From assembly GCF_028641065.1 (NCBI RefSeq), contig NC_073406.1, positions 8,184,001-8,248,000 on the forward strand: a stretch of DNA of 64,000 nt, given 5' to 3'. Under the pieces are notes generated by a model. That model did no database searches. It had not been told where the DNA came from and saw only the letters and a program-made list of their open reading frames with translations. Origin of the DNA: Leucoraja erinacea (taxonomy: Eukaryota). Numbering within the stretch: position 1 is the first letter of the stretch; each line of letters opens with the position of its first letter. The position numbers and the translations under genes were made by a program. Shown piece by piece: positions 5,606 through 62,009 of the stretch.

Positions 5606-5948
5606 TAATAATAGCATCCCTTCCATGGTGAGTCTGGAAAGGCTTGTGACTGCCACGTGGACTTGTGAGCGGTGGGCTGGCGGAGGTGGGTGGTGGTGGT
5701 AACCCCTGGGGGTTCCAAAAGTTCAGAGTCCTTGGGCAGTAATGCAGAGATGTGAGTAGTTTGTCAAGAGTGAGAATGGAGAGAATTTGCTGCGGTAAAT
5801 GAAGGAACCCACAGGGAGGGAGGGAGGGGTGCAGTCAGTGGCAATTAATATCAGCTCCACTCGTGTCTCCAACATGAGTTACTCTCCATCAGTATCCTGG
5901 AGGCATCTTGACCAAATTCCCTCTGGACCAGCCACATATAAACTGTAG

Positions 5949-6132
5949 GTACACAAAAATGCTGGAGAAACTCAGCGGGTGCAGCAGCATCTATGGAGCG
6001 AAGGAAATAGGCAACGTTTCGGGACGAAACGTTGCCTATTTCCTTCGCTCCATAGATGCTGCTGCACCCGCTGAGTTTCGCCAGCATTTTTGTGTACCTT
6101 CCATTTTCCAGCATCTGCAGTTCCTTCTTAAA
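5949..6132. mobile_element. Penelope-derived foldback element, young subfamily
   Basis: 75-nt inverted arms (5947-6021 and 6025-6099, 1 mismatch) with a 3-nt loop; flanking direct repeat cacatataaactgtag. Confidence 0.8.
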
Positions 6133-6148
6133 CACATATAAACTGTAG

Positions 6149-6358
6149 ATAGACACAAAAAGCTGGAGTGATTCAGCGGGACAGGCAGCAACGCTCGAGA
6201 GAAGGAACGGGTGACGTTTTTCGGGTCGTGACCCCTTCTAAGGGACTTGACCCGAAACGTCACCCATTCTTTCTCTCACGGAGATGCTGCCTGTCCCACT
6301 GAGTTACTCCAGTTTTTTGTGTCCTCGGGTATTAGCCAGCATCTGCAGTTCCTACCTA
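6149..6358. mobile_element. Penelope-derived foldback element, older subfamily
   Basis: Inverted arms meeting at degenerate hammerhead halves (gacccgaaacgtcacc). Confidence 0.75.
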
Positions 6359-7221
6359 CACATATAGACTTGCTGAAAAAACGAATGGCTCTCCTCCTGA
6401 AACTCCAAAGCTTTCTCAGTATCGATGGAATACTGTTCGCCTGAGAGTGACTGTCGCTGTACAGAAATGAATTTCATTGTACCTCAGTACACATGACAAA
6501 TAAAGTACCACACCTTCCCGAATGACTGCAGCTCCAACAACTCATAAGAGGTTCAACACCACTCTTGCCAAGGCAACACAGTCCCCTGTCCTAAACATCC
6601 ATGCTCTACACCACCTCTTCACGGTGATTGCTATTGCTTGTACCGTCTACTCTGACAGTACCGTCTCATCTCACACCACCATCACCAAGAAGGCTAAAGG
6701 ATAGAAAATATATGGAAATACCAGCACCTGTAGGCTCCCCTCCATCGTGACTTTGAAATATACCGCCTGTTCTTCATTATCTCTGAGTCAAAATCCTGAC
6801 ACTGCCTTCCCAACGTCACTGTGGGACTACCTTTACCAAAGACTCTGCAACAGTTTAACCTGTTCACTGCCAAGTTTCCTTTTCACTATTGTCCATGGCC
6901 CGCCTATACTCAGGGGTGACACTGAACTGGTTAAGAAACATTCTCCAGGTAATTCATGGATGGGCGGTAATTGCTGGCTTGACAAGTGATTTTTTTTAGA
7001 TGCGTAGAAGTTAACAAATAAAGAAATAGAGAGACATGGGCACAGAGAAAGAGAGTTGGTGGATGAGAAGCTGACGGGAAAGAAGCAAGGTATTCAGATG
7101 GCAGGGTTTTACATTTCCTGCTCCGGGGGGAGATGTTGGGGAAATGATCCACGGATGAATCCTTCACCCTCCAGCACGTTGCAAACTGCTTCACCAGAAG
7201 TTTGTATGTGTCCTTCCACAG

Positions 7222-7300
7222 CACAAAGCACGCAGATAGTATTGATCTAGAGTTGGAGGTGGATCCGCTGAATGTCGATCATTTCTCCTGCACGCCTCTG
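7222..7300 (+). CDS. CAMTA1: CAMTA1 coding exon TKHADSIDLELEVDPLNVDHFSCTPL
   Basis: Acceptor ccttccacag|C, donor CTG|gtaagt; phase 2 matches the previous exon. Confidence 0.96.
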
Positions 7301-7854
7301 GTAAGTGAAGTTCCAACTCTGTTCAGCGAATGTTTACAAAAGCATTCTGCAAACTGTAATGATGGTCCACTCTGCAGCAGGGCTTCGTGTTTGAAGAGGT
7401 TTTGAATTTTGGCTTCGAGCATTGGCTTCCAATCCAGCAAGCATTGGTGTTTAAAATTCTCAATTCTTTACAAATCTTGCCCTTTCTTCTCATTCCACCA
7501 GCCATCCATCCACAGAGATCGACCCATCCTCCAATTCAGACCTCGTAAAATTGCTCTCCCATAAAGGTCTGGAATTGCACCCCTAAACCTCTCTACCTCT
7601 GCCTCCATTTTTGAGATGCCCATTAGCACCTTCCCCTTGCAGTTTTTGGTCGTCTGTCCTGATCTCTCCCTGTGTGACAGTCACTATTTCTCTTGACAAC
7701 AGTCTGGTTAAGCACCGTGGGACTTTTTAAAACTATTTTAAAGGCACTATATAAAAGTATTGTTGTTGTTCCCTTTACATGGTGCAGAGTTTCCTCCCTA
7801 CAAGGGCTCCTGGATCTGTGGAGCCTACTGGCCACATACATACCAAATAAGTTT

Positions 7855-7980
7855 GTAAGTAATAAGAGCAGATTTTGACCATTCGGCTCATCAAGTCCAA
7901 CACCGCCATTCAATCATGGCTGATCTATCTCTCCCTCCTAACCCCATTCTCCTGCCTTCTCCCCATAACCCCTGACGCCC
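7855..7980 (-). mobile_element. CR1 LINE 3' tail fragment
   Basis: Matches the copies at 2538 and 28815. Confidence 0.7.
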
Positions 7981-8302
7981 AAAATGCCAAACTGCTGGGA
8001 AACATTGGAAATGCAGCATTGAGCTTGGGGAAGTCGGGGCAGAGATACATTTGTCCCATTGTAAGCTGAACTTTCAGCAGCTGGTAACAACGATAAATGC
8101 TACACTGTGAAATACCTTCATGTGGAGTCAGGGCTCTGTAAGAAAAGGATGAGCCTGTGCTTTTTTTTAGCTTTGCCACCTCAGACAGGGATGTTTCAGC
8201 CTGTCCACACTGGAGGAAACAGTGTTACAAATTAAAACCATCTTTATTTTGCATTGTTCAGTCTGCAAGAATGAATGTCAAATAACGTGTTTCTTTAACT
8301 AG

Positions 8303-8621
8303 ATGTGGGCCTGCGCTTTGGGGCACACTGAAGCAGCAGTCGTACTATACAAGTGGGATAATCGAGCCCTCTCCATCCCGGACTCACTGGGCCGTTTGCC
8401 TCTGACAATCGCCCGCTCCAGGGGGCACGTGAAGCTGGCAGAGTACCTGGAAGAACTTCAGAGGGAGGACGAATCACAGATCGCTGGCCTCCCTCAAACC
8501 CCCGGGATGGTTTGCTCCCCCGCTGAAAAATCAGCGAGTGACGGCTGGATGGGACAGTGGAACAATGGCAGCAACAGCAGCCAGGAGTCTCAGAAGAGTG
8601 TCAGCACATCGTCCACTACAG
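8303..8621 (+). CDS. CAMTA1: CAMTA1 coding exon MWACALGH...SSTT, ankyrin repeats
   Basis: Acceptor ttctttaactag|ATG; donor ACAG|gtgcat gives phase 1, matching the next exon. The rest of ORF 8303..9070 is intron read-through. Confidence 0.92.
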
Positions 8622-8660
8622 GTGCATTGACTCACTCCTTCACTCCTTCAGTCACTATTT

Positions 8661-8680
8661 TGTGTGTGTGTGTGTGTGTG
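8661..8680 (+). repeat. (TG)10 microsatellite
   Basis: Directly visible. Confidence 0.95.
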
Positions 8681-10836
8681 TTGTGGTCTCTGTCCCAGCC
8701 AATTTTGTGGCCATCAAACTCTGGATATGTTCAATCTGGGCAATGGTACAACTCTATTTTAAGCTCCCTGTGTGAGCAACAGATGATCCTTGGTGCGATG
8801 AGATGCAAAGCAAATCTCATTCAACAGTGTTTCATCAAAAATTACAATGCCAGGTTTAGCTACAGAGCAAAGCTTATTCTTCTCACCACAATGACCATAC
8901 ATTATGGTCACTTGTATCCAACTTGGTGCAGTGAAATTTGGAAGGGCACACACACAGATCCATCTTTTCTGGACCATCAAACACTTCCAATGCAGTCAGC
9001 ACAGCTGACATACAGTGAAGTCCCATCTATATTATCCACTGATCTCTTTTATAATTTAGATATGGAATAAAGGTTTCTTTTTTTAATTAATTTTATTTAT
9101 TTCTTTTTTTTTATTTTATTAGAAGCAATTGTACAAGAATAAAACATTCGGCTTCTATTAATTATACAATTAATTTACAGCTTCATTGTTAACCTTATAA
9201 CCTAAATTGGGGGGGGGAAAGGAAAAAAGGAAACAAATGGAAAGCAAGAATAGAAGAGAGGAAAAAATGAAGGGATAAAATAGAAAAGAACAAGAGAAAG
9301 ACCCTCCAAGCTACCAAAGCAGTGCAGCAGAAGGAAAGAGGTATAAGAATAGATGGAGATATACCTTGACGTTATATGTTCCTCAACGCCATTCTGAATG
9401 CTCCTCCTTCAGTTTGACCAAACCTGGGCAGGGATCTCTCACGAGTCGATAGTGATGTTACATTTTTTTTGAAAAGGAGGCTTTGACAGCCAGCATCTTT
9501 GAATTGGTTCCTCTGTCTACCTGGAAATCTCTTCCCGGGCCAGTGGTCGGTTTGCTTACTTTGGGAGTCTGTTGTTGAGTATGCAAATGACCTGGTCTGC
9601 TGATCAAAGCTAACTAAATATAGTTACAGCCTTAAAAATACAAAATAAAACTACAGATACCAGAAATCTAAAATGAAAACTGAAAATGCAGGAAACATTC
9701 AGCAGGTCAGGCAGCATCCGTGGAGAGAGAGAGAGAGAGAGGTAAGAGAGCTTTCGGCACAAGGGTGCCTGATCTGCTGAGTGGTTCCAGCATTTTCTGG
9801 TCTAATCATATTTAGAACCCCATTGCTGAGTGCATTGGCCTGGGAAAGGTTGCTGATATTGGTAAGCTTATCCTGCCAGGGATTTGCAGGATTTTTGTGT
9901 CTCAGTCTCTTGAGAGTGATTTCTTCCTGTACTGATGTTGTCAAGTTAGAAATGGTCCAGCGAGGATTTACGAGGATGTCGCCAGGACCCGAGGGTCTGA
10001 GCTCCAGGGAGAGGTTGAGCAGGCTTAATTGGGCTAGCAATAACTGCTTGATATGCCAGTTAAACTTTTGAAAAAGTTTTTAGAAAGTATATGAGCAGCC
10101 ATTTTGAAAGGCATGACAGGAACTCCATTGGCGAGGAGCATGGTGGAACTGCCGGAGAGGCCCAATGTCCTATTCCTTAATTTCCATGAGTTCTGTATGC
10201 TATATGATTTGTGGTGGGGTTTTTCCTCTTTTCACTATCCACTGGGCAGGCGATATATCCCACATGCTCCACAGAGGCAGACGCATCTTCTAAATTGATT
10301 AAGTGCAGTGATTTATTGGTATTGGTTAATTATTATCACATACATACCGATATGTGAAAACCATTGTTTGCGTGCGATTCAGTCAAATGAGTACATTCAA
10401 GCCACACGCAAGTACAACTCGAGTGCAACATGACCAGTGTGGAGTTACAGCCACACAGAAAGTAGCAAAGAAGAAAAAGTGCAAGGTCAGCAATGAGGCA
10501 GGTTGGGAGATGGGGGGGGGGGCTACACCCATAGCTTCTGGGGAGGTCCATTCAGTAGTTTGATAACAGCAGGAAAGAAGCTTCCTGATTCTGGTGGTAC
10601 GCACTTTCAAGTGACCCACAGATAAATTTCAAAAAGGAAATTGGTAAATCCCCAGAGGATCAACTCGTGGGGATAAAAGCTGGACGCCGGGACTTATTGC
10701 TGCCGTGACCCGACTGTCATAATGGTCTCCCCCTATGTTGCATGATTCTGTGACTCTGTGTGAAACTCATTTGAGATGTATCCGGGAGATGTGATCTGGA
10801 GGTGTTCAAACACAAAACTTGCTTTCCCCCTATTAG

Positions 10837-12349: not shown

Positions 12350-12455
12350 GTCAGTTCCTCCGCGATCTTTATATCAGTATGGGTGAACCTGGCTGCAAGT
12401 CAAACATTTATTCCTCAAAACACGATTAAAAGTTGAGAATGGGTCAACGCAATAT

Positions 12456-12959
12456 ATAGAAACATAGAAAATAGGTGCAGGAGTAGAGGCCATTCGGCCC
12501 TTCGAGCCTGCAACGCCATTCAATATGATCATGGCTGATCATCCAACTCAGTATCCTGTACCGGCCTTCTCTCCATACCCCCTGATCCCTCTAGCCACAA
12601 GGGCCACATCTAACTCCCTCTTAAATATAGCCAGTGAACTGGCCTCAACTACCTTCTGTGGCAGAGAGTTCCAGAGATTCGCCACTGTCTGTGTGAAAAA
12701 TGTTTTTCTCATCTCGGTCCTAAAGGAATTCCCCTTTATCCTTAAACTTTGACCCCTTGTCCTGGACTTCCCCAACATCGGGAACAATGTTCTTGCATCT
12801 AGCCTGTCCAACCCCTTAAGAATGTTGTATGTTTCCATAAGATTCCCCCTCAATCTTCTAAATTCTAGCATGTACAAGCCGAGTCTATCCAGTCTTTCTT
12901 CATATGAAAGTCCTGACATCCCAGGAATCAGTCTGGTGAACCTTCTCTGTACTCCCTCT
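12456..12959 (-). mobile_element. Young CR1/HER1-type LINE 3' end, about 500 bp
   Basis: ORF2 C-terminus LSYEERLDRLGLY..LEFRRLRG..FFTQ...WNSLP, plus tail. Confidence 0.92.
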
Positions 12960-13875: not shown

Positions 13876-15088
13876 GTTAGAGAGGCTGGACCTGTGTACG
13901 GCCATCCCTTGGAAATATGTTGTGGCAGCCTTGATAATCTGATCCTCAAAACCTATCCCGGGCACTGTTACATTGTAGGAGCCACAGTAAACCATAGCCA
14001 CAGAGCAAGAGACCACAAAGCAACGTGCTGAATGAACAGACAATTTTCTTGATGATGTTAGTTGAGGAGTTATCCCAGTCTTCTTCAAAATAGTTTCCAT
14101 GCATCTACGAGGGCATAGTTGCCCTTGGGTTGCTGGGCCATGGGTGCAAGCTTCCTCTTGTACATTTGAACACACTACATAGTCTGATGCCCCACTACAA
14201 TAACGAAGGAGCTCTGGACATTTGGGTGAGACAAACTGAGGATCCCATCTGGCTGCTTGGATCACTAAAAAATATTTTATAATATAGGGCGGGGTAAATT
14301 TTCAACAGTTTATGCCATTTTGGCAGAGTCCAGGGTTATGGTAAAGTGGAGATCTACAATTGGAATTATCTTGATGTACTTCTCAAACCCACTTGCTATA
14401 AAACTGAATTAAATGGAGGAATATGGAGCATGTGCAGGCTGGGGGATTAGTTTAAGTAGGTATCATGTTCGGCACAGAGATCATGGGCTAAAGGACCTGA
14501 TCCTCTGCTGCGCTGCAGTATTCTGTATGTACACTGCAAAGTGTATGTGACCAGATATTGGCTGAGGTGTGGGGTGGATTGGTTTGCAGTGCCTCCCTAC
14601 CTTTAACTAGCAGTTGAGACGAGAAGAATAGAGGCTTGGTATGGTCTTTGAGGCCATCGCCCATGGAAAGTGTCATTAGCTTTCCAAGAGGAGGAGGAAT
14701 TACAGGGTTGGTACTGTTAAATTGTGCCTTCTTTGGCAGTGAGAGGCAGATTAGCATATGTAATGAGTTACCAACGGAAGTGGGAGAGGTGGGGACAATG
14801 ACAGCGTTTTAAAATGCATTTTTTCAGGTTCATGGACAGGGATAAGGGCCAAATTTAAGTAAATAAAATTAGCTCAGGAAATAACCTAAGTTGGCACAGG
14901 TGAATTGGGCTGAAGGGCCTTTATCTGTGCTGTATGATTCTGGGCAACAGAATTTCAGTTCTGATGAAGGGTCTACAATTTGCAAACATTAACTTTTTCT
15001 CTCTCCCCAGATGCTGGCCGACTCACTCAGTATTTCCGCCTTTTTCTGTTTTCATGCAAATGTTAACATTGTTTTCCATTTGTTTTAG

Positions 15089-17080: not shown

Positions 17081-17492
17081 ACATGTGCCAGCTCTGGACG
17101 GTATCCAAGCAACGTGTGCTGTTCTCACTGTGGCTGGAGGTGCTCAGAGAACAGGGCCTCCATCTCAAGAGCTCTGGCTTGAAAAAGCCACTGCCCCATG
17201 TCTATTAGAGAGTGATGTCAGATGCTTCATTGTGATGGGGCTAGCTGCTCATGATATCAAACATTAATTAGAAAGCATAAAATGCCTCAAACATTCAGTA
17301 GATTGGGCAGCATCTGCCGTGTCAGGGAAACAGCCAATATTTCAGATGCATAATCTGAATCTCAAGGATTTTGTTCACCTATAAATACTATTATTCACCC
17401 CTCCCCCTGTTCTCTCCCCTTCCGTACCCCCTTCCTCACTGTCCTTTGCACATGTTGTCTAAAAATGTTGATTTAGTTCAATTCTGATGATG

Positions 17493-17518: not shown

Positions 17519-17712
17519 ATATTTTATTGTCATTGCACATAAGTGCAACGAGATTTGGTATGCAGCTTCCATCCGATGTCATAACTTAAATAACGAATAA
17601 AATTTAGATGGTATACAAAAAGACGATGTGGCATGTTGCACAACAGATAATAAATGTTTACAATCTTCATTGGCGTCAGTCAAAGTTGCAAATCCTACCC
17701 CTTAATTAATGT

Positions 17713-17902
17713 AGACAAAATTGCTGGAGAAACTCAGCGGGTGCGGCAGCATCTATGGAGCGAACGAAATAGGCAACGTTTCGGGACGAAACCCACTGAG
17801 TTTCCCCAGCAATTTTGTCTACCTTCGATTTTCCAGCATCTGGAATTAGTGCAGACAAACATCATGGTGGGCTGAAAGGAACGGTTTCTGTACCTTCTTC
17901 AA
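17713..17902. mobile_element. Penelope-derived foldback, internally deleted, carrying a captured 51-nt segment
   Basis: gctggagaaactcagcggg arm; flanking cccttaat(t/g)aatgt repeats. Confidence 0.7.
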
Positions 17903-18137: not shown

Positions 18138-18341
18138 GTGTAGGGAGGAACTCCAGATGCTGGTTCACACCGAAGATAGACGCAACATGCTGGAGTAGCG
18201 GGACAGGCCGCATTTCCGGAGAGAAGGAATAGGTCACGTCACGGGTCGAGACCCTTCCTCAGGTTGAAGACACAAAACGTCACCCATTCCTCCTCTCCAG
18301 AGATGCTGCCTGTCCTGCTGAGTCACTCCGGCATTTTGTGT
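18138..18341. mobile_element. Penelope-derived foldback element
   Basis: Inverted arms; gggtcgagacccttcctcag hammerhead remnant at the apex. Confidence 0.75.
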
Positions 18342-19773: not shown

Positions 19774-20547
19774 ATAAAACCACAGATACTGAAATCTGAA
19801 ACAAAACCAGAAATGCAGGAAGATCTCAATTAACTGGTGTCTTTTTCCACAAAAGGTTGCTTGACTGCTGGACTAGCTCTTCCAGCATTTCCCTTTTTTG
19901 TTTCATGCCTGTGAAAATCTCTTCATTTACACTTAATCAAAATTAACATTTTCCTTCAGCTGCCCTTTAAGGGACACAATGCCAAGTTACTTCCCAAAAT
20001 CATTTCTCATTTTATTTCTGAAAACCTGCCTTACTGCCAACTGCAAGAGTTTTGACAATTTTTCTGAAGTACAATGCCTGCACTGGGCGACTGAGTGGCA
20101 GGAGGCACACTTGCTTTTCCTCGGGTTGGGATGTTGCTATTTAAATTTGTCTCTTTTATAATGGGAGGATTCTGGCATGACCTCACCTGTCCACCAGGTG
20201 GCATGGTGAACCTTGCACCATGCTCATTCACCAGTACTCCAGTACTCACCTGGAATCCCTAGAATTTAAAGGATTATCTCTGGGAAAAAAACAAAACTAG
20301 GGGAAAAAAATCATGAGAGAGCATTAAAAGATGTGGTTTTATTAAATGTTTTGAATGCTTTTATTTTATGTTATAAAAATATTAATATATTATAAATAAT
20401 ATATTGTAATATATTATAATATATTATAAAATATTGGTGATACAAAGACATATTTGACATGGCAGGGAGGTTGAATATATAGACCTTTAGCAACAAATCC
20501 ATCCAGGGCTGTCAATCCTAACATTAGCTGCAGTTTAATCAGGCTTT

Positions 20548-24912: not shown

Positions 24913-25268
24913 TTAGTTACCAACTCTGGTTGCACGTATTAGAAAATGTAGCTACATAACCTGCCGCAGCTTCCAAACGATCACATGGTGCCCGTCCTGT
25001 TTGTACAACCGGTTCCTGCCTCCACCCTCTGTTGTTCATCTAGTGCCTACGCACCTGTCTGTCTTTCAATGCCCCCGGTTAATAACAATGTGCCTATCCT
25101 CATGATCCAGCTCCCACCCACCGATCACTCATTGTGCCTATACACATGGTGCACCCTCATTCCACTGCCCCTCTGAATCAGTGCCCATCCACAGCTTCCC
25201 ATTGCCCCTCCCTGTAGTTGCCGATGCTCATGGTGCCCCCATGTTAGACAAACAGCATTGATTCTTTG

Positions 25269-25476
25269 TTTAAGAGGGAACTGCAGATGCTGGAGAATCG
25301 AAGGTTACACAAAAAAGCTGGAGAAACTCAGCGGGTGCAGCAGCATCTATGGAGCGAAGGAAATAGGCAACGTTTCGGGCCGAAACCCTTGGTTTCGGCC
25401 CGAAATGTTGCCTATTTCCTTCGCTCCATAGATGCTGCTGCACCCGCTGAGTTTCTCCAGCTTTTTTGTGTAACCT
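25269..25476. mobile_element. Penelope-derived foldback, young subfamily
   Basis: 86-nt inverted arms (25302-25387 and 25391-25476, 1 mismatch); 15-nt TSD agcattgattctttg. Confidence 0.82.
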
Positions 25477-25491
25477 AGCATTGATTCTTTG

Positions 25492-25589
25492 CAGTGTAGG
25501 AGGAAGGGTCTCGACTCGAAACGTCACCCAATCCCTCTGTCCAGAGAGGCTGCCTGTCCCGCTGAGTTACTGCAGAATTTTGTGTCTAT
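25492..25589 (+). mobile_element. Penelope-derived element, single arm, older subfamily
   Basis: gaagggtctcgactcgaaacgtcacc followed by arm sequence. Confidence 0.7.
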
Positions 25590-26756
25590 CATTGATTCTT
25601 TACATCTCAACTCAGTAGGTGTTGTCAACTACCCTTTCTCCCTCTCTCTTATTTTTTTTATAATTAACTAAGCTCTTCAAAGAAAGTGTTAAAACCAACA
25701 ATGTGTTGTGACGTTCCTTCTGTATTTGCTTCCAGCAAACTCCTGGTGATTAATCTTCAGATCCTAGAGATACCCGGATAAGAGTGGGGGAGGGTTAGCC
25801 AAGACAGTCTAGTCCATTTTGCCAAATTGGGTGGGCCCGAGTTGTGAGCTTTCCTCCTCTTTGCCTTTGCTGTTATTGCCTTTGCTGAGTAAATCAATCT
25901 GTGGAAAATATACTCGATCAAAGCATTTTGTTCCCATCGCCTTTGGAGTGTCTCATTAATTTCCACCTTGTACAAAGCATTTGTTTAAAATAAGTGTGAT
26001 ATAAGAGAGAAGGGAATACAAGTGTTACAGGGCAAATAACAGTGGAAGCAAAGAGACACAGAATTGGAAGAAGGAATTGTGATCAAAACAGATTTACAAA
26101 CAATGGCAAAAAGAAGAAAGAAATGAGGATTTATTTATACAAAGGTTGTTTGATTTAGAATTCAGTCTGGAATGACATTGGCAGAAGACTCAATAGTTAT
26201 TTTCCAAAAGGAATTTAAGTAAAACATGTAAAGGGCAATGGGCAGGGAGAGTCATTGTGGGACAAAATCAAGAGCTCTAAAAAATCCAACATGTGTACAT
26301 TGGCCAAAGAACCTCGTTATATGCATTATAGAAGAAAAAAAGTTTAGGCTGGAATAATTATTGTGTAATATTAGCTGGATTATCAATGTGGTAGAAATTT
26401 GTCTTTGGCAATATTCTGTTGACTGTCTGGTGTGATCCATAGAATGATCAGATAGAATAGCTTTCCTTGGTTTAAGAAATAACAAAAAACATAAACGTTC
26501 AAAGCTTGGTCCTTCTTAAGTTTCACTGTGATGATAGATGGTGTGAAAGCCTTAGTCCAAACAAGAACTAGTGACATAAACCAGAAATCCAGAGCATAGT
26601 GTGACACAGACACATTCTCATCCATATCTGCATCCATAAGTCCCAGCCTGCAGGATTGCAGTCTGCAGTCATTGCAACAAGATGAGAACACTAAATCTGA
26701 GCTGGTGACTTCCATGAGACCACTAGAATGATTGCGTTAAAGGAGACCACTTAGTC

Positions 26757-33669: not shown

Positions 33670-34275
33670 TAAGACTCAGGGCTTTAGTAAAGGGAGTGGG
33701 CAATAAAAAAAGTTGAATTCCACCAAAGAGCTCGTAAAAAGACGATGGACTCGATGCACTGTTTCATCACAACAATGAACTTTGATTAAATAGCTGTGAT
33801 AAACTAACGGGCAAATAAATTCAGTTCAGATTTGTTGCATAAGCTAATATCACAAGGAGTGATTTCAAGCCTTAAAGACTCCACCGCTCAAAAATATTAT
33901 TAATGTCTATCCAGCTGATTTAAATAGCAACAAACTAACTTAATCAGTTGCTCGAGGCCAATGTTAGATGAAGCAGCTGTCTTTTTAGTCACTTAAATCC
34001 AACCAGATCAGTCCTGTCTGCCATCCCCAGTATGATTTTATAAATTTCATCTGGCTCATGATATCATGTGGATGAAACAAGTAGATGATAGTGATTTGAG
34101 AAAAGGTTTTGCCTCATTGTTCTTTGCTGACTCATGTTTGTGCTCTTGTCAAAGATCAATTTCATCCCTTCAGTTTTAATCAGCAACTTTGCGCATTATA
34201 ATTTATCGCAACAGAGCAATTATTCTTCATCAATTGCAAACTCTCTGTGTATGTCGAGGATAATTCCTTGCTTAG

Positions 34276-34475
34276 ACACAAAAAGCTGGAGTAACTCAGC
34301 AGGTCAGACCCCAAAGGTAGACACAAATGCTGGAGAAACTCAGCGGGTGAGGCAGCATCTATGGAGCAAAGAAAATAGGCGACGTTTCGGGTCGAGACCC
34401 TTCTTCAGACCATCTCTGTAGAAAAGGAATAGGTGACATTTTGGGTCAAGACCCTTTTTTAGTTCCTTCCTATAC
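34276..34475 (-). mobile_element. Two nested Penelope-derived elements
   Basis: 16-nt TSD ataattccttgcttag (34260-34275 and 34476-34491); a younger copy (about 34311-34410) splits the older one. Confidence 0.75.
34378..34411 (-). ncRNA. Minimal type I hammerhead ribozyme motif (PLE-associated)
   Basis: The minus strand reads GGU CUGAAGA A GGGU-CUCG-ACCC GAAA CG UC GCC: intact core, stem II and a short stem I. Activity untested. Confidence 0.65.
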
Positions 34476-35504
34476 ATAATTCCTTGCTTAGTGGTTTCCT
34501 GCCTGACACGACTAAGTTATAACATGTAGCTGAAAGATATCTTGCTCTTAAAGGGCAATGTTACCTTGTATTAAAGGTCATCTTAAGTTCTCCTTCCTTC
34601 TCGCCCTCCCCCCACAAGGACTGTGTCTCATGTGTGCACGTCATGCAATGTAAGATCAAAAAGGGAGTTTCCTTGTCTAAATCAGTAATTGACGACCGTA
34701 TTCAAAACAGCTTCAGGATATTTTAGCTTTGAACACAGATTCCTGGCCTACTCAGAAGACTTGGCTGTTAGTGCATCAAGTGAATTTTGAAACTGCAAAC
34801 TTTGAAGACAACTTAATCACCCCTCAACCCAGAAGACCCGTCAGTGGGGGAGCAAGACACCAGCTTGCTCAAGATAAGCTTCCCTCACTGATCGGGGAAC
34901 AAGAGGAAGTCATTCATCCCTCAAGCCTGTTCCACCACTCAGTTGCAGCATGCCTTATCCATTCCATAACCCTCCTTATCTCCATATCCCTGATTCTCTT
35001 ACCAGACATAAAAAAAAAGCTCTCAAATTCAGTCTTGCAAACCTTAATTTTCAGCACTAGTCAAATCCTTCTTGATGAGCCACAGATTTCAACAAGAGTT
35101 GCGTGAAAACATCTTGCCTCGTTTATTGCCTGGATGTCTTCTGTTAAACTGTGGCTACAAGCCACCATGTTTGTACCATGGGAAGCCAGGAAGAATGCTA
35201 TGACATAGAAGGTGGATTTGTGAACTTCATAATGATCTGCCCTCAGAGTGCTACTCTCGCACTAGGAAAGCATCAATAGTTACCATTGAACATCCAGAGC
35301 CCACTCTTCCAACTACTGGTGACCCCAGTTTCAACTGACTGCCGTGAGCCACTTCCGATTCTTGTTATTTACTTCTCAGCCAAAAGCAGATACCATGCCC
35401 GACAAATTCAGAGAAAAGGACTGGAGAAAAGTCAGTAAATTACTGGGGGTGACCACGCTGTGGCCCCACCTCAATTAAGACTCTGCCTCCAATACAATGA
35501 ACAA

Positions 35505-36671: not shown

Positions 36672-36740
36672 CAGCGGGTGCAGCAGCATCTAGGGAGCAA
36701 AGGAAATAGGCAACGTTTCGGGCCGAAACCCTTCTTCAGA
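36672..36740 (-). mobile_element. 69-nt Penelope-derived insert inside the CR1 copy
   Basis: 26-nt flanking duplication at 36646-36671 and 36741-36766. Confidence 0.8.
36712..36739 (-). ncRNA. Minimal hammerhead ribozyme core
   Basis: The minus strand reads CUGAAGA A GGGU-UUCG-GCCC GAAA CG UU; stem I is weak. Confidence 0.55.
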
Positions 36741-38143
36741 CACTTGTCCCATATCCCTTTAAACCTTTCCCATCCATGTACCTGTCTAAACATCTTTTAA
36801 ATGCTATTATAGTATCTGCCTCAACTACCTCCTCTGCAGTTCATTTTATATAACCACCACCGTCTGCGTGAAATAGTTGCCCTCAGATTCCTATTAAATT
36901 TTTCCCATCTCACCTTAAACTTATGTCCTCTTGTTCTTAAGTCCCATACCTGGGTAAATGAACCTGTGCATTCACCCTATCTCCCTCGTGATCTTTTACA
37001 CAATAAAATCACCTCAACCTCCAAGGAATAAAGTCTTAGCCTGCCCAACCTCTCCCTATGGGTCAGCCCTTCAAACCTTCGCTGCATCCTCGTAAACCTT
37101 TCCAGCACTCTTTCTTACTTAACAACATCCTATAGCAGGGAAACCAAAACTGAACACAACACTCCAAAGGCGGCCTCACCAACGTCTCGTACAACTGTAA
37201 CATAACATCCTAACTTCTATACCCAATATCCTGACTGTTAAAGGCCAAGGCCTTTTTGATGACCCTATCTACCTGTGATGCCACTTTCAAGGAACTATGT
37301 CCCTGCACAGCTAGATCCCTACAACACTCCCCAGGCCCTGCCATTCACTGAGGTCCTGCCCTGGTTTGACTTCCCAAAATGCAACACCTCACCCGTAACT
37401 GCGTTAAACTCCATCAACCATTCCGCAGCCCTTTTGCCCAACTGATCAAGATCTTGTTGTAATTTTCGATAATCATCTTTGCTATCTACAATACCACCAA
37501 CTTTAGTGTCATCTGCAAACTTACTAATCATGCCTTGTACCTTCTCATCCAAATCATTGATGTAAACCACAAACAGCAGTGAGCCCAGCTCTGATTGAGG
37601 CACGCACAGCACTAGTCACAGGTCTCCAGTCCAAAAAACAACCTCCACCATCATCCTCTGCTTCCTTCCATGAAGCCAATTCTCTATCCAGATGGCCAGC
37701 TCTCCCTGGATGCCATGCGGTCTAAAGTTCCAGAGCAGCCTACCATGCGGAACCTAATCAAATGCCTTGCTAAAGTCCATATAGACAGCGTCTAAAGCTT
37801 TGCCCTCATCAACCAGTTTGATGACTTTTTCAAAAAACTGTATCAGATTCGCAAGACACAATCTCCCATATACAAAACCATGCTGACTATGCTATGCCTG
37901 ATCAGCTCCTGTCTATCCAGATCATATACCATCTTATCCCTCTGAATCCTCTCCAATAATTTGCCTACCCCAGATGTTAAGCTCACCAGTCTATGGTTTC
38001 CCAAGCTTTTCCTTGCAGCCTTTCTTAAATAGAGGCACAACATTAGCCACCCTCCAGTGCTCCGGTACTTCACACAAGTCCAATGATGTTCATATATCTC
38101 AACCAGGCAATTTCTTCTTTTGCCTCCCACAGCATAACATTTC

Positions 38144-38335
38144 TAGTAGGTAGACACAAAAAGCTGGAGTAACTCAGCGAGACGGGCAGCATCTCTGGAG
38201 AGAAAGGATAGGTGACGTTTCGGGTCGAGACATCACTCATTCCTTCTCTCCAGAGATGCTGCCTGTCCCGCTGAGTTACTCCAGCTTTTTGTGTCTATCT
38301 TCAGTGTAAACCAGCATCTGCAGTTTCTTCTTACA
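38144..38335. mobile_element. Penelope-derived foldback element
   Basis: Inverted arms; 11-nt TSD cataacatttc (38133-38143 and 38336-38346). Confidence 0.8.
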
Positions 38336-39054: not shown

Positions 39055-39530
39055 ACATAGAAACATAGAAAATAGGTGCAGGAGTAGGCCATTTGGCCCA
39101 TCGAGCCTGCACCGCCATTCAATATGATCATGGCTGATCATCCAACTCAGTATCTCATCCCTGCCTTCTCTCCATACCCCCTGATCCCTTTAGCCACAAG
39201 GGCCACATCTAACTCCCTCTTAAATATAGCCAATGAACTGGCCTCAACTACCTTCTGTGGCGGAGAATTCCACAGATTCACCACTCTCTGTGTAAAAAAT
39301 GATTTTCTCATCTCGGTCCTAAAAGACTTCCCTCTTATCCTTAAACTGTGACCCCTAGTTCTGGACTTCCCCAACATCGGGAATAATCTTCCTGCATCTA
39401 GCCTGTCCAACCCCTTAAGAATTTTGTAAATTTCTATAAGATCCCCCCTCAATCTTCTAAATTCTAGCGTGTACAAGCCGAGTCTATCCAGTCTTTCTTC
39501 ATATGAAAGTTCTGCCATCCCAGGAATCAG
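39055..39530 (-). mobile_element. Young CR1/HER1-type LINE 3' end
   Basis: Uninterrupted ORF2 C-terminus (ORF 39147..39545) plus a (CATAGAAA)n tail. Confidence 0.92.
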
Positions 39531-39869
39531 GAACCAGGAATACATAACAATGCCTCATGTAGTGTTGCATCTTCTTGTACTTCTTGTAATGGTGAGCAAA
39601 ATTAACTAACCGTATGAGTATGAGGATAGAATTGGATTCAGCTGCGCTGGCTTCCATAGCTGAATAGCCCATTTCTCTTCAGTGTTTAACTATTACTTAT
39701 CAGCAAACGTGGAGTCATATTTCAGCAATAAATCAGCACTATTGACAGAATACAATTTGGAATGAAAGTGAAGGAGGAAGAGGCCGGTGGTAGGGTGATG
39801 GCAGTGAAATCTAGTTACTGGAGATGGAGGAATTAAACTGCCGGTAGATCGCCAACTAGTCACCCAGTC

Positions 39870-46441: not shown

Positions 46442-46664
46442 CAGAAACAAAGAACAGCAAATGCTTGTTTATAACAAAGATAGACACAAAGTGCTGGGGT
46501 AACTCAGTGAGTCAGGCAGCGTCTCTGGAGAAAAAGGATGGGTGGCGTTTCGGGTCGGGACCCTTCTTCAAACCCGGAGTCCTGACCCGAAACATCACCC
46601 ATCCTTTTTCTTCAGAGATGCTGCCTGACCTGCTGAGTTACCGCAGCACTTTGTGTCCATCTTT
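46442..46664. mobile_element. Penelope-derived foldback element
   Basis: Inverted arms with a mutated hammerhead at the apex; 12-nt TSD gctgaaaaactg (46430-46441 and 46665-46676). Confidence 0.8.
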
Positions 46665-49600
46665 GCTGAAAAACTGTATCTTGACTTTTAGCATAGTTGG
46701 TACATATTTTGGAATGCAGCGTAACTCGGAGAACAGGCAGAGGGTTCAGAAGGGGGGGGGGGGGAAGAGCTGTCAGAAGGGGGGGGGAAAAGGAAGGGAT
46801 AAGAGCTCTTGTGCAAAGATTAACCCTGAGTACAGTTCTGCTTGCTCAATCTCATGGATGGCCAGTGTGTGGGGAAATTGGTGCTTCATTAAGGATCAGC
46901 TCAGTAAAAATATCACCACCCCACTAGCAAAGTATGCTGAGGACCACATTGCCAGTTGCTGTCTAGGTCATTGTGGCTATGAGATGTTAGGGGCGTGATT
47001 CCTTTAAGGCTAAGGCAAGAAACATTTGCAACACCTCTCAGCCTGCTAACCATTGCTGCACAAGGGAGAGGTAGGTCACTGATATACGCTCTAATCCAGA
47101 AAGGTTGAGTGCATTTAATTCCATCTGGGCAGACGCCAACAGTAAGAGCAAACTAACAGCTTTGGGAGATTTGCAGCTTCCCCATGACACAGAGTGCCAC
47201 TGACAATGTGCACGTTGTCTTGAAGGTGTCAACGGCACAAACCCAAAGGGATTCCAGCCCCTCGTTTGCAGTTAGTTTGCGACTAAGCACGTCACATTAT
47301 GATCTCCTGACAGCAGTCAAAAGGTATTCATCCTGATGCTGTCCAGAAATGACATGTTTCTGAGTCTCCATAGCAAACCAGAGGGTAACTACTTTATGAC
47401 AAGGAATATCAATGCACAATCCATTCAAAGGTAGGGCAATGCACATTGAATGGATGCCATGTCACAAGAAACGTGGTTGACTCGAGATTCATGGTCATTT
47501 CCTGCATGCTCCAGAGCCTTGACAGAATAGTGGTGAACCTGTACATTGGGCAGCAGATGGGTCCACACAAGAACACCAGCCCATTTCTGCCTGGCCTATG
47601 TGCCACTAGCCCACGTTACCAATAAATACCAGCTTAATTTTCCATTCACCAACAAGCCATGTCATACCTTGCCTCATGGCCTCTGCTTGCGACATTTCTT
47701 AAACAAAGGGAATTATAAAATAAAAATTCCTAACTTAGAAATCAAAATCTGTCAAATTGCCGACTTGCCTGTATTGCCTTTGTTCAGTTACTCCGCTCGC
47801 ATTTGCCTGCACTAGAGTTGCTGCCAGTTGCTGCTGCATTGCTGCATGCAAAGCCCCTGCTGATTCCGCATGGGTTTCTCACAAACCTGTCATTGCATTA
47901 ATTGTCCATATCATCTGACCACATCAGCTGTACAAGCCCCATCCAAATGCCCCATCTATGGCATCTGCAATTGAGCTCTTGCAGAGCCTCATTCTCCTTC
48001 TGCTTAGCCTTTGCTGCAAGTCCAGTGCTCAGCGTACGTACCCTCTGCCTCCACTTTCATCCCCAAATTCCCTGCATTGCAGTGCACTGAGCTATTGGTT
48101 GTGAATGCCAAACTATCCACAATTGTGCCTTGACCAACACTCGATTCTTACTCTCCATGCACCTTTTGGCTGTCAGAATGGACAATGGTACAAGTGAAAG
48201 AGGGTGGGAAGGAAAGGGAGAGAAAGACTATGTTTGATTGTGGGATGCAATGAATTGGAAGATTGAGAATGAGGTCACCATCTTCCTCCACGGTCTTCCC
48301 TCCCCATATCCCTCATCGTCCCCAGACTCAGTAGCTCTCACACAAGTGATGTCCAACAGGCTTCTGTGTGGCAACAAGATGATGGAACGGCACTTTACCT
48401 CTGCTGGTTAGCTGTTGCCCTGACTGTGCACTGCCTTGTCCTGTGATAGAGAGGAATGTGCCTCAACACAATGTGATCTATTTGGATAGTGCAGCTACAC
48501 GTAAATAACCTGCTGTGTGTGCAAGCTATGAGATGTGTTTGTGTGATGTTGCACCAAGTGTGGGAGAATGTGGTACAGATTATGAATAATAGGCTCCAGG
48601 TTTGATCGTGCAAAGTTGCTGATGAGTGAGTGATAAGGATGTGGTGCACTGAGAACTGTGTGCCACTGCTGGTGCTTTTGATGGCATTTTAAGATGCATT
48701 CAGACTTTGATTGTTGATGTGAGGCAGCATCAAGCTTCTAACGACAGGATTCAAGTTCTCAATGCTTGAATCCTGGCATTGACTCCCACCTCAATGTGTA
48801 CTTGTTGCCTTCTGTGTGAGGCTAGGGGAGCACCCACTCCCTCAACCCACCCTTTCATTGCAAGCCCCTCCCTCCCCTCCTGGACCCAGGCCTTGATTAT
48901 AATACAGGAGAGCCCCAGAGTATGCTCCCTTCATTGCCATGCCACTCTTAAATGTTTCCCAGGTCTGCTGCAGAATACACACCAGCTCCTGCCTCAGAAT
49001 GCCTTCCCTTCAAGAGGCACAAGTTGACTTAAAATAGCATTGCCTTGTCTTAATTGGTGCTAGCCACTCACAAAATTGGATCCCTGCTTAGAAACACACC
49101 AATGGAAAGGATAACGCCCATCTGGGCTGCAGACTGAATTTGTTATAATTATCAGACAACACAAACAGCAGACTACAAAAGATCACCATGCAGGTTTTTT
49201 GAGGACCATCCGATTTAGCCCCCTCTGTTTTTCAGAAGAATTCATATTTCTACATGAGTAAGTCATTATATTCAGCGCTAACTTCCCACGATCCAATGCC
49301 CGTGACATTGCCAATTTATGAGCAAGATTTTTTTTTTTGCCATAGGTCTAAGTCCATTAGGAATGAGGGTTGCAGAAAAATCAATTCCACCCCATTCCAG
49401 CCATCGCTCGCCAGGCTTATAAATTGTTGTGGTGTACGCCTTCCCACAGCTGTTCAGTGGCAAACAGCCTTCAAATTACAGGATTGGATGGTACAGAGTC
49501 TTAAAGCAGCTCTGTTTGTTTTGCCTCCAGTATGCTATGAATGAATCTTTTAAAAAACATACAAATAACTTATTTATGTGTGTCCCCCCCCTCCGAGTTT

Positions 49601-55420: not shown

Positions 55421-57700
55421 TTTGTTGCACACTGCAACAACCCAGGGACATATGCTACGACAGAGACTCCTGGGGTTGCTCACAATTGCATGTGATACTA
55501 GTGTAGATTCTCCTTTCTTTTTTCTTTTTTTTTTGTCTCTCTTTTCTTGCCCCTTCCTTTTTTTTCCCCCCCTCTCTTTCTTCCTCTACACTCTCTTGTT
55601 TTGAACCTTTTTGATTTCAACCTTTTGTTTCAATTGTTCCTCTTTTTGTATGTCTGCATGTGAGAGTGTCACTGGGTCGTTTAGAATCTTTACAAGGGAT
55701 AGCCCAGCTGCCAGAGTCATGCAAACATTTTAAATTCCCCGTCAAAATTATGTAAGATGTTTTTGAATGCTTTATAATCCTTTCTGCTGTAAATTAAAAA
55801 AACAAAGAAAAATCTCTCCATGTTAGTTTGTTAAATTTATTTCTGAATATATATATCGTTTGATACTTACTAACTTTCTCGTTCCCTGGACAGCCTTTTG
55901 ACTCGCGGCACCAAGGTGCCCTCCAATGGATTGGTTATCAAACCATTTCATTCTGGTTTCTTTCCTGTTTCTTTTTATTATTGCTCTTCCCTGGATATCA
56001 CTTTCCTGTCATTGGTCTTCCTTTTCCTTCTCTCGACTTCCCCTTCCCTCAACCGATCTTACTGTTTGCTTTTCCCCATTCCCTGAAATGTCTCCTTTAC
56101 TGGCGCTCACCTTCCCCTTTTTCTTTCCCAGCTGCGTGCAACTTCAGTCTCCTCTCACACCTCACCTGGCTCCCGAGTTCCACCTCCAGTTGATGGTGCC
56201 TGGAGGTTGGTTCTGTTTCTCCATCATTGCCCCAATCAAATGTATCCCAGATCCAATATTTCTTTAACTAATGAGCAAAATTTATATCAAGGAAAATGAA
56301 AGGTTTCCATTTTATTTATTACCTCCCCATGTCAATCACGGTGTGCCGACAATTGGTGGGTCATTTATGGGGGTACGTGCAAAATCCTGGAAGGTTAAGA
56401 ACTCCACCTTCTTCAGTGGGCCATGATGAAGAAGGTCAGCAGGCTGTTAGACGACTCGTGCTCTCACCACCATGTGTCCCTTTTACCATGAGAGACTGTG
56501 GATCATGATCAGATTGACCTATTTCCACCGCATCACAGACTGACCATCAGATTGAGTGTTATGGCTGCTGTTAATCCTCAGTAGTGTCTCTTAGTTTCTG
56601 GCCTCAGTGTTGTTCTGCCATGGTCCCGTGCTTTTCTGTGGCGAATGAAATAAATACTTGTCTGGCTGCACACAGTTGGTCCTGCACGGGTATATGGTTA
56701 AATGTCTGACTTTCTTATTGTCTCTCTCTGTCATTGTCTCAATGGGTAATTGTCTAATTTCCGTTTGTGCCTCCCTCTACCTACAATGTAGGCAATTCAG
56801 TATCACAGGACTAGTGTATGTCCTTTTCCAGCCAGGTCCTCACACCTCTGTGGGACTGCCTCATCTTCCACTGGCATTATTTGCTCCGAAGAGTTAACTA
56901 CTGACGAGATGTCACCCCAAGTGTGTGCTTCCTTCCTTAAGGTAGTTCAAGCACATTATTGTTCTTGGAGGTTGAATCGTTAGCTTGGCCTCCTACAGAA
57001 CAGGCTAACTCCTTGAAACATGGCTAGGAGCAATAAAAGATGGACAAGGTAACTTTAAATGAAGGATGGAAAGCACTCACTTCAAATGTAAATAAAATGG
57101 TAGACCTCGTTCTTACACCTTTGAAAAGGACAAAACCTGGAACATTGAAGACAAATGTGGGCACTGGAATCTGCCCAGCAATAGAAGGATTACTATAACA
57201 TTTACCTGAATAAAGCAGTGAATCAAAAGGTGGTACTGATTGTGGTGGAGGTACAGTGCTGGACTCGGACAGAGCAGCATTGCTGTCAAAAGGAGCAGTG
57301 ATATTTTACTTTTTGATTCTCCTCCTTCATAATTGTAATGGCTTATTTGAAGGCTACAGGGTTCAGGCCACGTTGGTCATCTTCCTGCCATTTTTGGCTG
57401 CAGCAAGCGCGGACAAGATGATGTATCAGAGCTGAGAAAATGTACAGTGAAATATTGGAGGCTAACTCAGCATGTTGTCCACCAGCCATTGAATATTCAG
57501 TTCATCGGCAGAAATGACAGTCGGAACCACAAACTCCCCTTGCCTCATCTATAAAACAGACCATTGGAAACTGCTAACGTAACATAAGGAACAATGGAGG
57601 AGCTGAACATTTGGCTTGGCATGGCACGACAATAATCTCAACAATAAGTGGCATTCACAGAGTGAGTAAACTTCGAAGAGAGTCCAACGCATCCAACTCA

Positions 57701-57758
57701 AAGGTACACAAAAATGCTGGAGAAACTCAGCGGGTGCAGCAGCATCTATGGAGCAAAG
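57701..57758 (-). mobile_element. Penelope-derived arm fragment
   Basis: Near-identical to the start of the 5947 arm. Confidence 0.75.
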
Positions 57759-57796
57759 CCTTGGCTACTTCATTACTGGCTTGCAGACTGACTGAC

Positions 57797-58087
57797 TTTA
57801 GAGATACAGTGCAGAAACAGGCCCTTCGGCCCACCGAGTCTGCGCCGACCAGCGATCACCCTGTATACTAGCACTATCCTACACACTATGGACAATTTAC
57901 AGAAGCCAATTGACCTACAAATCTGTGCATCTTTGGAGAGGGAGGGAACCAGAGCACCTGGAGAAAACCCACGCAGTCACAAAGAGAACGTGCAAACTGC
58001 ATACAGACAGCACCGGTGGTCAGAATTGAACCTGGGTCCATGGCGCTGTAAGGCAGTAAGTCTATCGCTGCGCCACTGAGCTGCCCC
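57797..58087 (-). mobile_element. HE1-type V-SINE, full length
   Basis: Pol III A and B boxes on the minus strand; CR1-like tail. Confidence 0.87.
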
Positions 58088-60260: not shown

Positions 60261-60340
60261 GATAGACACAAATTGCTGGAGTAACTAAGCGGGACAGGAA
60301 GCATCTCGGGAGAGAAGGAATGGGTGACTTTTTGGTCAAA
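60261..60340 (-). mobile_element. Penelope-derived arm fragment, older subfamily
   Basis: gctggagtaact...gagagaaggaatgggtgac. Confidence 0.65.
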
Positions 60341-60679
60341 ACATGGTTTCACCATGGTTGGTCCAACTGAAGTGGCCACGTATTAGCAGCGAGCAGAGAT
60401 GTTGCGTTACTGCGTCGCCAATCTTGTGCAATCCTGACTTCCACTGTTGTCTGTGTGGAGTTTGCATGTTTTCATGTGACTTCATCAATTTCCTCGCACA
60501 TCCCAAAGATGTGTGTGTTTTGGGGGTCAATTGACCGTTTTAAATTGCCTTCAGTGTGTGGGTAAGTGTTGGAAATGTGGGAGGAATAGATAATAGGAAA
60601 CTTAGAGCAAGTTGGGAAGGGCTCGATAGACTCAACGGCCTCCTCCTATGTCGCTAGGGAAAACAGAAATAGGCAACAT

Positions 60680-60976
60680 GGGCAGCACAGTGGCGCAGCG
60701 GTAGAGTTGTTGCCTTACAGCGTCCGAGATCCTGGTTCAATCCTGACTACGGTGCTGCCTGTATGGAGTTTGTACGTTCTCCCCGTGACCACGTGGGTTT
60801 TCTCCGAGAGCTTTAGTTTCCTCCCACACTCCAAAGATGTACAGGTTTGTAGAAGTGTAAGTGTATAAGTGTAAATTGTCCCTAGTGTGTGTAGGATAGC
60901 GTTAGTGTGCGGGGATCGCTGGTCGGTGCGGACTCGGTGGGCCGAAGGGCCTGTTCCCGTGCTGTATCACTAAACT
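60680..60976 (+). mobile_element. HE1-type tRNA-derived V-SINE, full length
   Basis: A box TGGCGCAGCGG at 60691-60701, B box GGTTCAATCC at 60734-60743, V-domain-like core and a gggccgaagggcctgtt tail shared with CR1. A decayed relative lies at about 60390-60650. Confidence 0.9.
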
Positions 60977-61313
60977 AGTATCACTAGTATGCTGTATCCA
61001 CTAAACTTGTGGGGCTGCCCCCCACAAGCACCTCACCCAAACGCACCCCACCCACACACTCCTAACCCCACAAACACCGACAGTGCACACACACATCACC
61101 TCCCCTCCCCCCCATCCTGTCATCTCCCACTGAGAGTTAATGTTTAAAATCTCAGCGGTGCGTGATAGTTTACAAGTTGAAGCCAAATCACATACAAGTT
61201 ACGATGCCTTTCCTGATGGCCAAAATATCTCCAAGTGTTGCAGAGGTTTGGAATGCAAAACACAGCTGACACTGGGAGGAACTAATTACAAATCTGGCAA
61301 ATAGTTCTTCGTT

Positions 61314-61585
61314 AAACAGGGCCTTCAGCCCATTGAGTCCGCGCCAACCAGCAATCCCTGTACACAACCACTATCCTACACACGAGGGACAATTTACAAC
61401 CTTTACCGAAGCCAATTGACCTACAAACCTGTACGTTTTTGGAGTGTGGGAGGAAACCGGAGCACCTGGGGAAAATCCATGCGGTCACAGGGAGAACATA
61501 GAAACTCCGTACCGACTGTACCCGAGGTCAGGATCAAACCCGGGTCTCTACCTCTCCACAACTGCCACCGCGGTGTCACCATGCC
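61314..61585 (-). mobile_element. HE1-type V-SINE
   Basis: Inverse of 60680-60976, about 340 nt away. Confidence 0.82.
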
Positions 61586-61666
61586 AGCTTGTCACTGGTA
61601 ACTGGTGACCAATGAAAATCAAAGAGGATGGAGATTTTAATTTAGCCATTGGGCTTAAAATGATGT

Positions 61667-61842
61667 TTAAGAGGGAACTGCAGATGCTGGAGAATCGAAG
61701 GTTACACAAAAAAAAGCTGGAGAAACCGGTACAGCTTGTGGAAAAGGAGGAGGAGCCTGAAGGCACTGGTAAAGGGGAGGAGGCAAGGACTAACACCAGA
61801 CTCCCCAAACGGAATATGAAAAGAGAGGTCAGACGGAGTGGG
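61667..61842 (-). mobile_element. Chimeric Penelope-derived insert with 44-nt flanking duplication
   Basis: Starts like 25269; perfect direct repeat at 61623-61666 and 61843-61886. Confidence 0.75.
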
Positions 61843-62009
61843 AGAGGATGGAGATTTTAATTTAGCCATTGGGCTTAAAATGATGTAGCTCATTGTCAAA
61901 ATCTTAGCTGTACCCTCAACTTACATATCAGTTGTAGCATCTACGATCAAATAGTACATTTACTGATTGCACAAAAGCAGTGAATTTATTTGTCACATTT
62001 AGCACAATG

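Follow-up and report, generated by a model that had tools for sequence, protein, structure and literature searches.

A 64,000-nucleotide (nt) stretch of Leucoraja erinacea DNA (contig NC_073406.1, positions 8,184,001 to 8,248,000 of the forward strand; hereafter the window) contains a family of short inserts that are likely to be leftover terminal repeats (pseudo-long terminal repeat (pLTR) plus tail) of endonuclease-bearing (EN+) Penelope-like retrotransposons, or Penelope-like elements (PLEs). The fold-backs among them probably arose anew at each insertion, through reverse transcription (RT) of PLE terminal repeats primed by both nicked target strands at two start sites. Thirteen inserts with 24 arms were delimited in the window, with boundaries set by hand from target-site duplications (TSDs) and alignments. 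The arms were mapped to a 132-nt unit, where position 1 lies 2 nt before nucleotide C3 of a minimal hammerhead motif and the last position is the tail end (E1), the fixed end recognized in an earlier note on this DNA. An adjacent, inverted, 5′-truncated copy in head-to-head orientation is found in nine of the 13 inserts, and the tail is one-sided in all nine. The inserts occur at a density of about one per 5 kb, measure 60–225 nt as a whole and contain no open reading frame (ORF). Every copy listed in the earlier note is present, and a profile search of the window gave 29 matches at E ≤ 1, with none in the reversed window. The extra matches included older relatives at 2242, 9643–9813, 14967, and 17272, which, together with two weak matches near 19800, were left out of the insert and arm counts. 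Copy number is very high: a single 192-nt stretch is matched by 60,782 contig records from one DNA run, and by 65,858 contig records in a related organism.

The arms revealed two fixed outer ends, 30–40 nt apart, in place of the single one previously proposed. Nine of the 10 tail-bearing arms terminate no more than 5 nt from E1 (including two stubs of 11 and 15 nt that were placed by hand) and the remaining one lacks 17 nt, whereas 12 of the 14 tail-less arms end 30–40 nt inside E1, at a position termed E2, with the other two at 62 and 77 nt. Uniform placement did not bring 12 of 14 ends into any 11-nt window in 200,000 draws. Moreover, a tail arm is combined with a tail-less arm in every one of the nine two-armed inserts, an outcome expected once in 512 at even odds per arm. 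Two RT start sites bracket the tail in an anole PLE, where cleavage and extension affect both target strands, a dimeric protein is predicted, and uncut RNA serves as the template (PMC11167929). An inverted 5′-truncated copy with a one-sided 30–40-bp tail is described as the typical PLE layout (PMC8557442; PMC3846280), and opposite-strand pairs of minimal hammerheads, as well as solo motifs, have been ascribed to truncated PLEs (PMC4209133). At most tail junctions the TSD begins with 1–5 letters that would equally match the element end (by eye), which hints at brief primer pairing.

The extent of the two arms bears directly on how the fold-backs formed. The tail arm extends further in three of the nine (18138, 25269, and 46442), the arms differ by no more than 3 nt in two (5949 and 6147), and in four (17708, 25492, 34272, and 38144) the tail arm falls more than 10 nt short of its partner, two of these having mere stubs. 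The earlier description of a shorter inverted copy fails in these four. That note had proposed a snap-back at the ribozyme hairpin. In the form considered here, close to the self-priming view in PMC3846280, tail-primed cDNA would reach the hammerhead, fold at helix II and copy itself, with an endonuclease resolving the product at E2 and short tail arms resulting from later deletions. Such a route yields a one-sided tail by design and is consistent with the concentration of junctions on helix II and the GAAA box, the 3-nt loop in which insert 25269 turns, the further reach of the tail arm in three inserts, and the 99% likeness of young arm pairs; published readings likewise attribute palindromes to self-priming (PMC3846280) and the tail to EN-mediated resolution (PMC8557442). 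However, in the four inserts with the shorter tail arm, which twice measures only 11–15 nt, the tail-less arm holds sequence absent from its partner, and because a cDNA of this kind copies only what it holds, these four could not be built by fixed-end snap-back without later deletion. In addition, the single arms 57701, 60261, and 36667 begin at, near, or inside E2 in inserts without any tail arm, and E2 matches the measured RT start site of another PLE (PMC11167929). Snap-back at the ribozyme hairpin is possible for three of the nine fold-backs but is not supported as a general route, given the separate fixed end of the second arm and the four inserts in which that arm holds the additional sequence, and we regard it as an improbable explanation of the family. 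At 34272, both junctions of the insert, including the stub, are spanned by contigs from organisms C and D with 0–2 differences, which indicates that the insert is old and not an assembly error, although an early deletion may have occurred.

The inner ends stop at the hammerhead. Eighteen of the 24 fall in unit positions 1–30, the hammerhead up to its cut site (a result obtained in six of 200,000 draws, where the arms of one insert are non-independent), and the inversion points cluster on helix II and the GAAA box, in line with the turn at the hammerhead that the earlier note had proposed. Inner ends exactly 2 nt before C3 were found at 34312 and 36667, lying against a TSD or the next piece, and within a nucleotide of this position at 46442. 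None of the 24 arms clearly passes this wall, with 18138 ambiguous by ∼3 nt. One RNA run contains 5,456 reads with a loose end at the wall, compared with a depth of ∼11,300 over helix II. In every run examined, reads from other copies extend beyond the hammerhead into sequence with a common start, with an agreement of 0.33–0.64 over 30 readable letters; this level of agreement indicates a mixture of continuing element and flanks, and the shared start indicates that the unit is the end of something longer. Because 18 of the 24 arms extend upstream beyond the cut site, they derive from an uncut template, like that of the anole element. On the sense strand, the consensus preceding the wall is rich in pyrimidines and terminates in CAG; in D. 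virilis an intron ends at helix I (PMC4209133; PMC2377424), and the loose ends of the reads contained no shared short exon that would mark a 3′ splice site at the wall. The wall may represent the 5′ end of the RNA, a splice acceptor, or a point where copying stalls on the motif. A potential 8-bp stem joining body to tail is retained in 92% of cells over eight copies, its tail strand being immediately preceded by E2 and followed by E1. Compensatory changes are absent and column-shuffled alignments score equally well, and the stem is treated here as a lead only.

Taken together, two target-primed cDNAs account for all nine shapes, whereas snap-back requires four extra deletions, each sparing the tail-less arm. 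Staggered target breaks 11–44 nt apart give rise to the TSDs seen around the inserts. One arm of a fold-back starts at E1 and the other at E2, 30–40 nt inside, and these positions would be the counterparts of the pair of RT start sites mapped in the anole PLE. Both cDNAs would head towards the hammerhead and stop early, mostly within the motif, the cDNA from E1 sometimes after 11–60 nt, and their ends would then be joined head to head, often via a few shared letters, to leave a hairpin with a one-sided tail. Template jumps could explain why pieces lie in tandem at 34272 and why unrelated sequence was captured at 61727. A more specific version, where one RNA with its 5′ end 2 nt before the core is copied twice from starts bracketing the body-tail stem, strictly one per strand, with the RT that started at the tail either displacing the other cDNA or stalling at it, is conceivable but remains doubtful.

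Several points weigh against this account of two target-primed cDNAs from a PLE. The geometry of 18138, 25269, and 46442 fits snap-back equally well and that of two more inserts nearly so, and later deletions inside palindromes could shorten tail arms. In vitro work on the anole element reports no strand difference in start-site use, leaving a strict one-and-one pairing unpredicted (PMC11167929), and the published interpretation of junction palindromes is self-priming (PMC3846280). If 5′ truncation of a 3-kb element were random, 18 of 24 inner ends would not lie in the hammerhead with none clearly upstream of it. Arm pairs are reciprocal nearest matches in only three of seven comparable inserts, being one-way in two and neither in the two most decayed. 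No empty site was seen for the 34272 insert, which organisms C and D both carry. As regards the PLE origin, which is suggested by architecture and motif, no PLE ORF was seen adjoining the unit in the window, and pattern scans for the unit in metagenome, viral, and prokaryote collections gave zero matches each. The fragment at 695–845 (minus strand), which the earlier note took as a PLE GIY-YIG remnant, is frameshifted across two frames and by eye resembles the C-terminal half of a Neptune/Naiad-type GIY-YIG domain (PMC8557442 Fig. S2), but it is unlinked, lies 5 kb from the nearest listed copy, and lacks search support, having returned no Pfam family and no homologue, only four repetitive junk hits and atlas hits below 0.9. 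A protein search with an open frame of the unit also found nothing.

The fold-back layout occurs in two main subfamilies (A and B), in a mixed one (34312), and in an old relative (9643–9813), and all nine fold-back junctions are different. Consequently, no single fold-back master has spread and the fold-backs form repeatedly. In the young inserts the arms are each other's nearest match (72/73 and 85/86), and the relative at 9643–9813 keeps a fold-back with a one-sided tail, which makes the process ancient in this lineage. The separate SINE-like (short interspersed element-like) unit of the earlier note is not borne out, given nine different junctions, at least three subfamilies with an older relative, and reads that continue past the hammerhead. 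In its fullest form this would be a dedicated non-autonomous, SINE- or retrozyme-like element with a 130-nt RNA that has its own start 2 nt before the core and is mobilized in trans. The hard inner wall (exact in 34312 and 36667, within a nucleotide in 46442, and clearly passed by none of the 24 arms), the very high copy number, and the retention of the body-tail stem (92% of cells across eight copies) are what such an element would predict. However, the fold-back junctions are not shared, and the reads past the wall have a consensus start, so some copies belong to a longer element. The tandem arrays that retrozymes need are missing, no tRNA gene was found (a weak test), and the stem is without compensatory change. 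Two RNA runs gave no peak of molecule starts or ends, which counts weakly here as the libraries are fragmented and unsuited to mapping cut or start sites. A short template could equally be the 5′ part of an autonomous element's RNA, and a dedicated element appears quite improbable. Non-LTR (non-long terminal repeat) retrozymes were also considered and rejected, there being only one partial tandem (34272), with one intact core.

Flanking direct repeats of at least 11 nt were observed for nine of the 13 inserts, measuring 16, 13, 15, 11–16, 16, 26, 11, 12, and 44 nt, and only six of 400 random spans (1.5%) attained 10 nt. The long TSDs described previously are confirmed at 11–44 nt for these nine but were not found for 17708, 18138, and 57701, with only 8 nt at 60261. 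The long hairpins are also confirmed, reaching 86 nt at 99% (25302–25476) and 94 nt at 86% (46468–46672), and each of four whole fold-backs is predicted to fold as a single long hairpin. Long inverted repeats and flanking direct repeats would suit a miniature DNA transposon with terminal inverted repeats (a miniature inverted-repeat transposable element (MITE) or fold-back element), but the TSDs vary from 11 to 44 nt, the tail is one-sided, all of the centers are different, and single arms also have TSDs. Variable TSDs and asymmetric ends refute this alternative, which we consider extremely improbable, and agree with the retro-type insertion with fixed-end priming that the earlier note had favored over a DNA transposon.

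A minimal hammerhead descriptor identified two sites in the window, at 34408 and 36739 (minus strand), compared with a shuffle mean of 0.015, and none of 200 shuffles contained two. The first intact type I core (34381–34408, minus strand) is comprised of CUGAAGA, an extra A, a 4-bp helix II with a 4-nt loop, GAAA, a palindromic CG, and GUC, and the second (36712–36739, minus strand) has a UUCG-capped helix II and a GUU cleavage triplet. Helix I has only 2 bp and helix II has 4 bp in both. The two cores match the metazoan minimal hammerhead consensus of CUGANGA, an extra base, G10.1–C11.1, GAAA, a palindromic CG replacing helix III, and NUH (PMC4209133 Fig. S3), a motif described as a low-activity type (PMC4209133). 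Both are located on tail-less arms, and parts of the core are lacking or mutated in 22 of the 24 arms. The minimal type I hammerhead reported earlier is supported by the descriptor in two of the 24 arms but not by an Rfam covariance search, where none of 12 matches at E ≤ 5 was to a hammerhead family and only hairpin look-alikes below gathering scores were returned. Only two of 10 tail arms run from the fixed end as far as the CUGA box (18138 and 46442), both with broken cores. The predicted hammerhead folds (−4.0 and −4.3 kcal/mol) lie above the predicted minima (−5.3 and −6.7 kcal/mol), and the dimer that is predicted differs from the active one. The motif is real, of the known low-activity type and probably silent here, and in the fold-backs it would be locked inside the modeled long hairpin. 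The copies are dead, with no ORF and with no intact ribozyme core in 22 of the 24 arms. In the single-cell RNA run X22, reads are 3–7 times more abundant on the strand opposite the hammerhead (25200–25391 and 34200–34560), most strongly at the hammerhead end; these strands are those of the reads and do not identify the strand of the RNA. No RNA record was listed for the unique stretch searched, which says nothing on expression.

The inserts most closely resemble the insertion units of EN+ PLEs, as described in PMC3846280 and PMC8557442, sharing the head-to-head 5′-truncated inverted copy, the 30–40-nt tail at one end, the TSD, partial tandems, and unrelated sequence captured beside the pLTR. 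They differ in being 60–225 nt long without an ORF, in having a tail arm that is sometimes the short one, and in TSDs of 11–44 nt compared with 8–10 nt in the rotifer examples. The hammerheads of metazoan PLE pLTRs (PMC4209133) have the same core and occur mostly as solo motifs, with some opposite-strand pairs; helix I is 2 bp here, as in D. virilis, with a 4-bp helix II, and cartilaginous fish are not among the rows of Fig. S3 of PMC4209133 that were examined. The anole Poseidon element PAc (PMC11167929) has the same two fixed 3′ ends bracketing the tail, with a hammerhead ∼110–130 nt upstream, and likewise copies uncut RNA, consistent with the 18 of 24 arms that include sequence upstream of the cut site. 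Here, in contrast, pairing is strict, with one of the two ends on each target strand, and tail junctions share 1–5 letters between element end and TSD, whereas PAc initiation is described as non-homologous. Non-LTR retrozymes (bioRxiv 10.64898/2026.07.22.740005) are similarly non-coding, hammerhead-bearing, and related to PLE pLTRs, with monomers known, but they are head-to-tail repeats with a complete hammerhead per unit, whereas the copies described here lie head to head, with an intact core missing from 22 of 24 arms. Open-access papers naming both Penelope-like and twin priming are, by title, on other elements, and an earlier description may exist.

Among the individual inserts, 5949 (5949–6132) is a young A-type fold-back with a tail-less arm at 5949–6023 (minus strand) and a tail arm at 6025–6132 (plus strand). 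Its TSD (5933–5948/6133–6148) has an exact core of 16 nt, the 22 nt with two mismatches found by script having run into element letters. It adjoins 6147 (6145–6357), an older B-type fold-back with a tail-less arm at 6145–6239 (minus strand), a tail arm at 6240–6357 (plus strand), and a 13-nt TSD with one mismatch (6132–6144/6358–6370). The A-type fold-back 17708 (17712–17842) has a tail-less arm reaching helix II (C3+8), a tail arm that does not begin until C3+60 and is missing its final 17 nt, a 4-nt junction overlap, and no TSD found. In 18138 (18138–18341, B-type), the tail arm at 18138–18262 (minus strand) extends to the CUGA box, with the GAAA box broken, and the tail-less arm lies at 18272–18341 (plus strand); again, no TSD was found. 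The young A-type fold-back 25269 (25269–25476) consists of a tail arm at 25269–25390 (minus strand) and a tail-less arm at 25391–25476 (plus strand), which form the 86-bp hairpin at 99%, within an exact 15-nt TSD (25254–25268/25477–25491). It is followed by the B-type insert 25492 (25495–25590), made up of an 11-nt tail stub (minus strand), a short overlap, and a tail-less arm from helix II at 25504–25590 (plus strand), with a TSD of 11 nt exact or 16 nt with one mismatch. In two places (5933–6370 and 25254–25601) the left TSD of an older B-type insert is thus occupied by a young A-type insert, leaving three near-copies of the target, and these two landings (among 13 inserts) suggest reused nick sites or homing to element ends.

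The complex insert 34272 (34276–34475) contains head-to-tail minus-strand pieces at 34276–34307, 34312–34410, and 34411–34459, followed by a 15-nt tail stub at 34461–34475 (plus strand), between exact 16-nt TSDs (34260–34275/34476–34491). The single-arm A-type insert 36667 (36672–36741, minus strand) lies within another repeat; its inner end, 2 nt before C3, adjoins the TSD of 26 nt with one mismatch (36646–36671/36741–36766), and its outer end is 62 nt from the tail end, where target and element have a few letters in common, making a third, homology-guided start possible. Insert 38144 (38148–38335) is a B-type fold-back with a tail-less arm to C3+10, a tail arm from C3+24, and an 11-nt TSD (38133–38143/38336–38346). 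The diverged B-type fold-back 46442 (46442–46664) comprises a tail arm at 46442–46572 (minus strand) that reaches the CUGA box, with C3 mutated, and a tail-less arm at 46579–46664 (plus strand), with an exact 12-nt TSD (46430–46441/46665–46676). Insert 57701 (57697–57758, minus strand) is a single tail-less A-type arm with no TSD found, and 60261 (60262–60342, minus strand) is a single tail-less B-type arm to helix II with an 8-nt flanking repeat of uncertain meaning. Finally, 61667 (61667–61842) has a 60-nt tail arm at 61667–61726 (minus strand) and an exact 44-nt TSD (61623–61666/61843–61886); the 116 nt between arm and TSD (61727–61842) are purine-rich and unrelated, with no second copy in the window and no Pfam match. 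Of the older relatives, 9643–9813 has the same layout in diverged form, with a long tail-side arm (minus strand) and a short tail-less arm (plus strand), 14960–15083 (plus strand) is a single arm that starts at a CUGAUGA box with the remaining core decayed, and further diverged relatives of the unit lie at 2242–2318 and 17272–17345.

The window itself is vertebrate gene DNA, with short plus-strand exons, one bearing an ankyrin repeat, among fragments of LINEs (long interspersed elements) and SINEs. From the look of its peptides we take the gene to be CAMTA-like, no search having named it. LINE 3′ fragments with open C-terminal frames, presumably of CR1 type, are found at 12548–12958 and 39147–39554 (minus strand), and others occur at 1252–1471, 16728, and 20542; all are ordinary. 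A separate 234-nt palindromic element at 5376–5609, with 90-nt arms that are 89% complementary, is MITE-like and has a weak microRNA-precursor score.

The class to which these inserts belong is already known, since minimal hammerheads, inverted copies, and one-sided tails have all been published for PLE ends, and what is new here is a very abundant, stub-sized set. For annotation, the hairpins mimic microRNA precursors and MITEs, and masking them as PLE ends is advised. The inserts form a natural record of PLE integration, a process called unresolved by PMC8557442 and PMC11167929, and the strict mixed pairing, short tail arms, and hammerhead wall provide modest, countable predictions for the existing in vitro system. 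If true, the reading of one RNA copied from two starts would explain both the one-sided PLE tail and the inverted pLTRs, and the hundreds of thousands of skate-type copies would make the integration step measurable.

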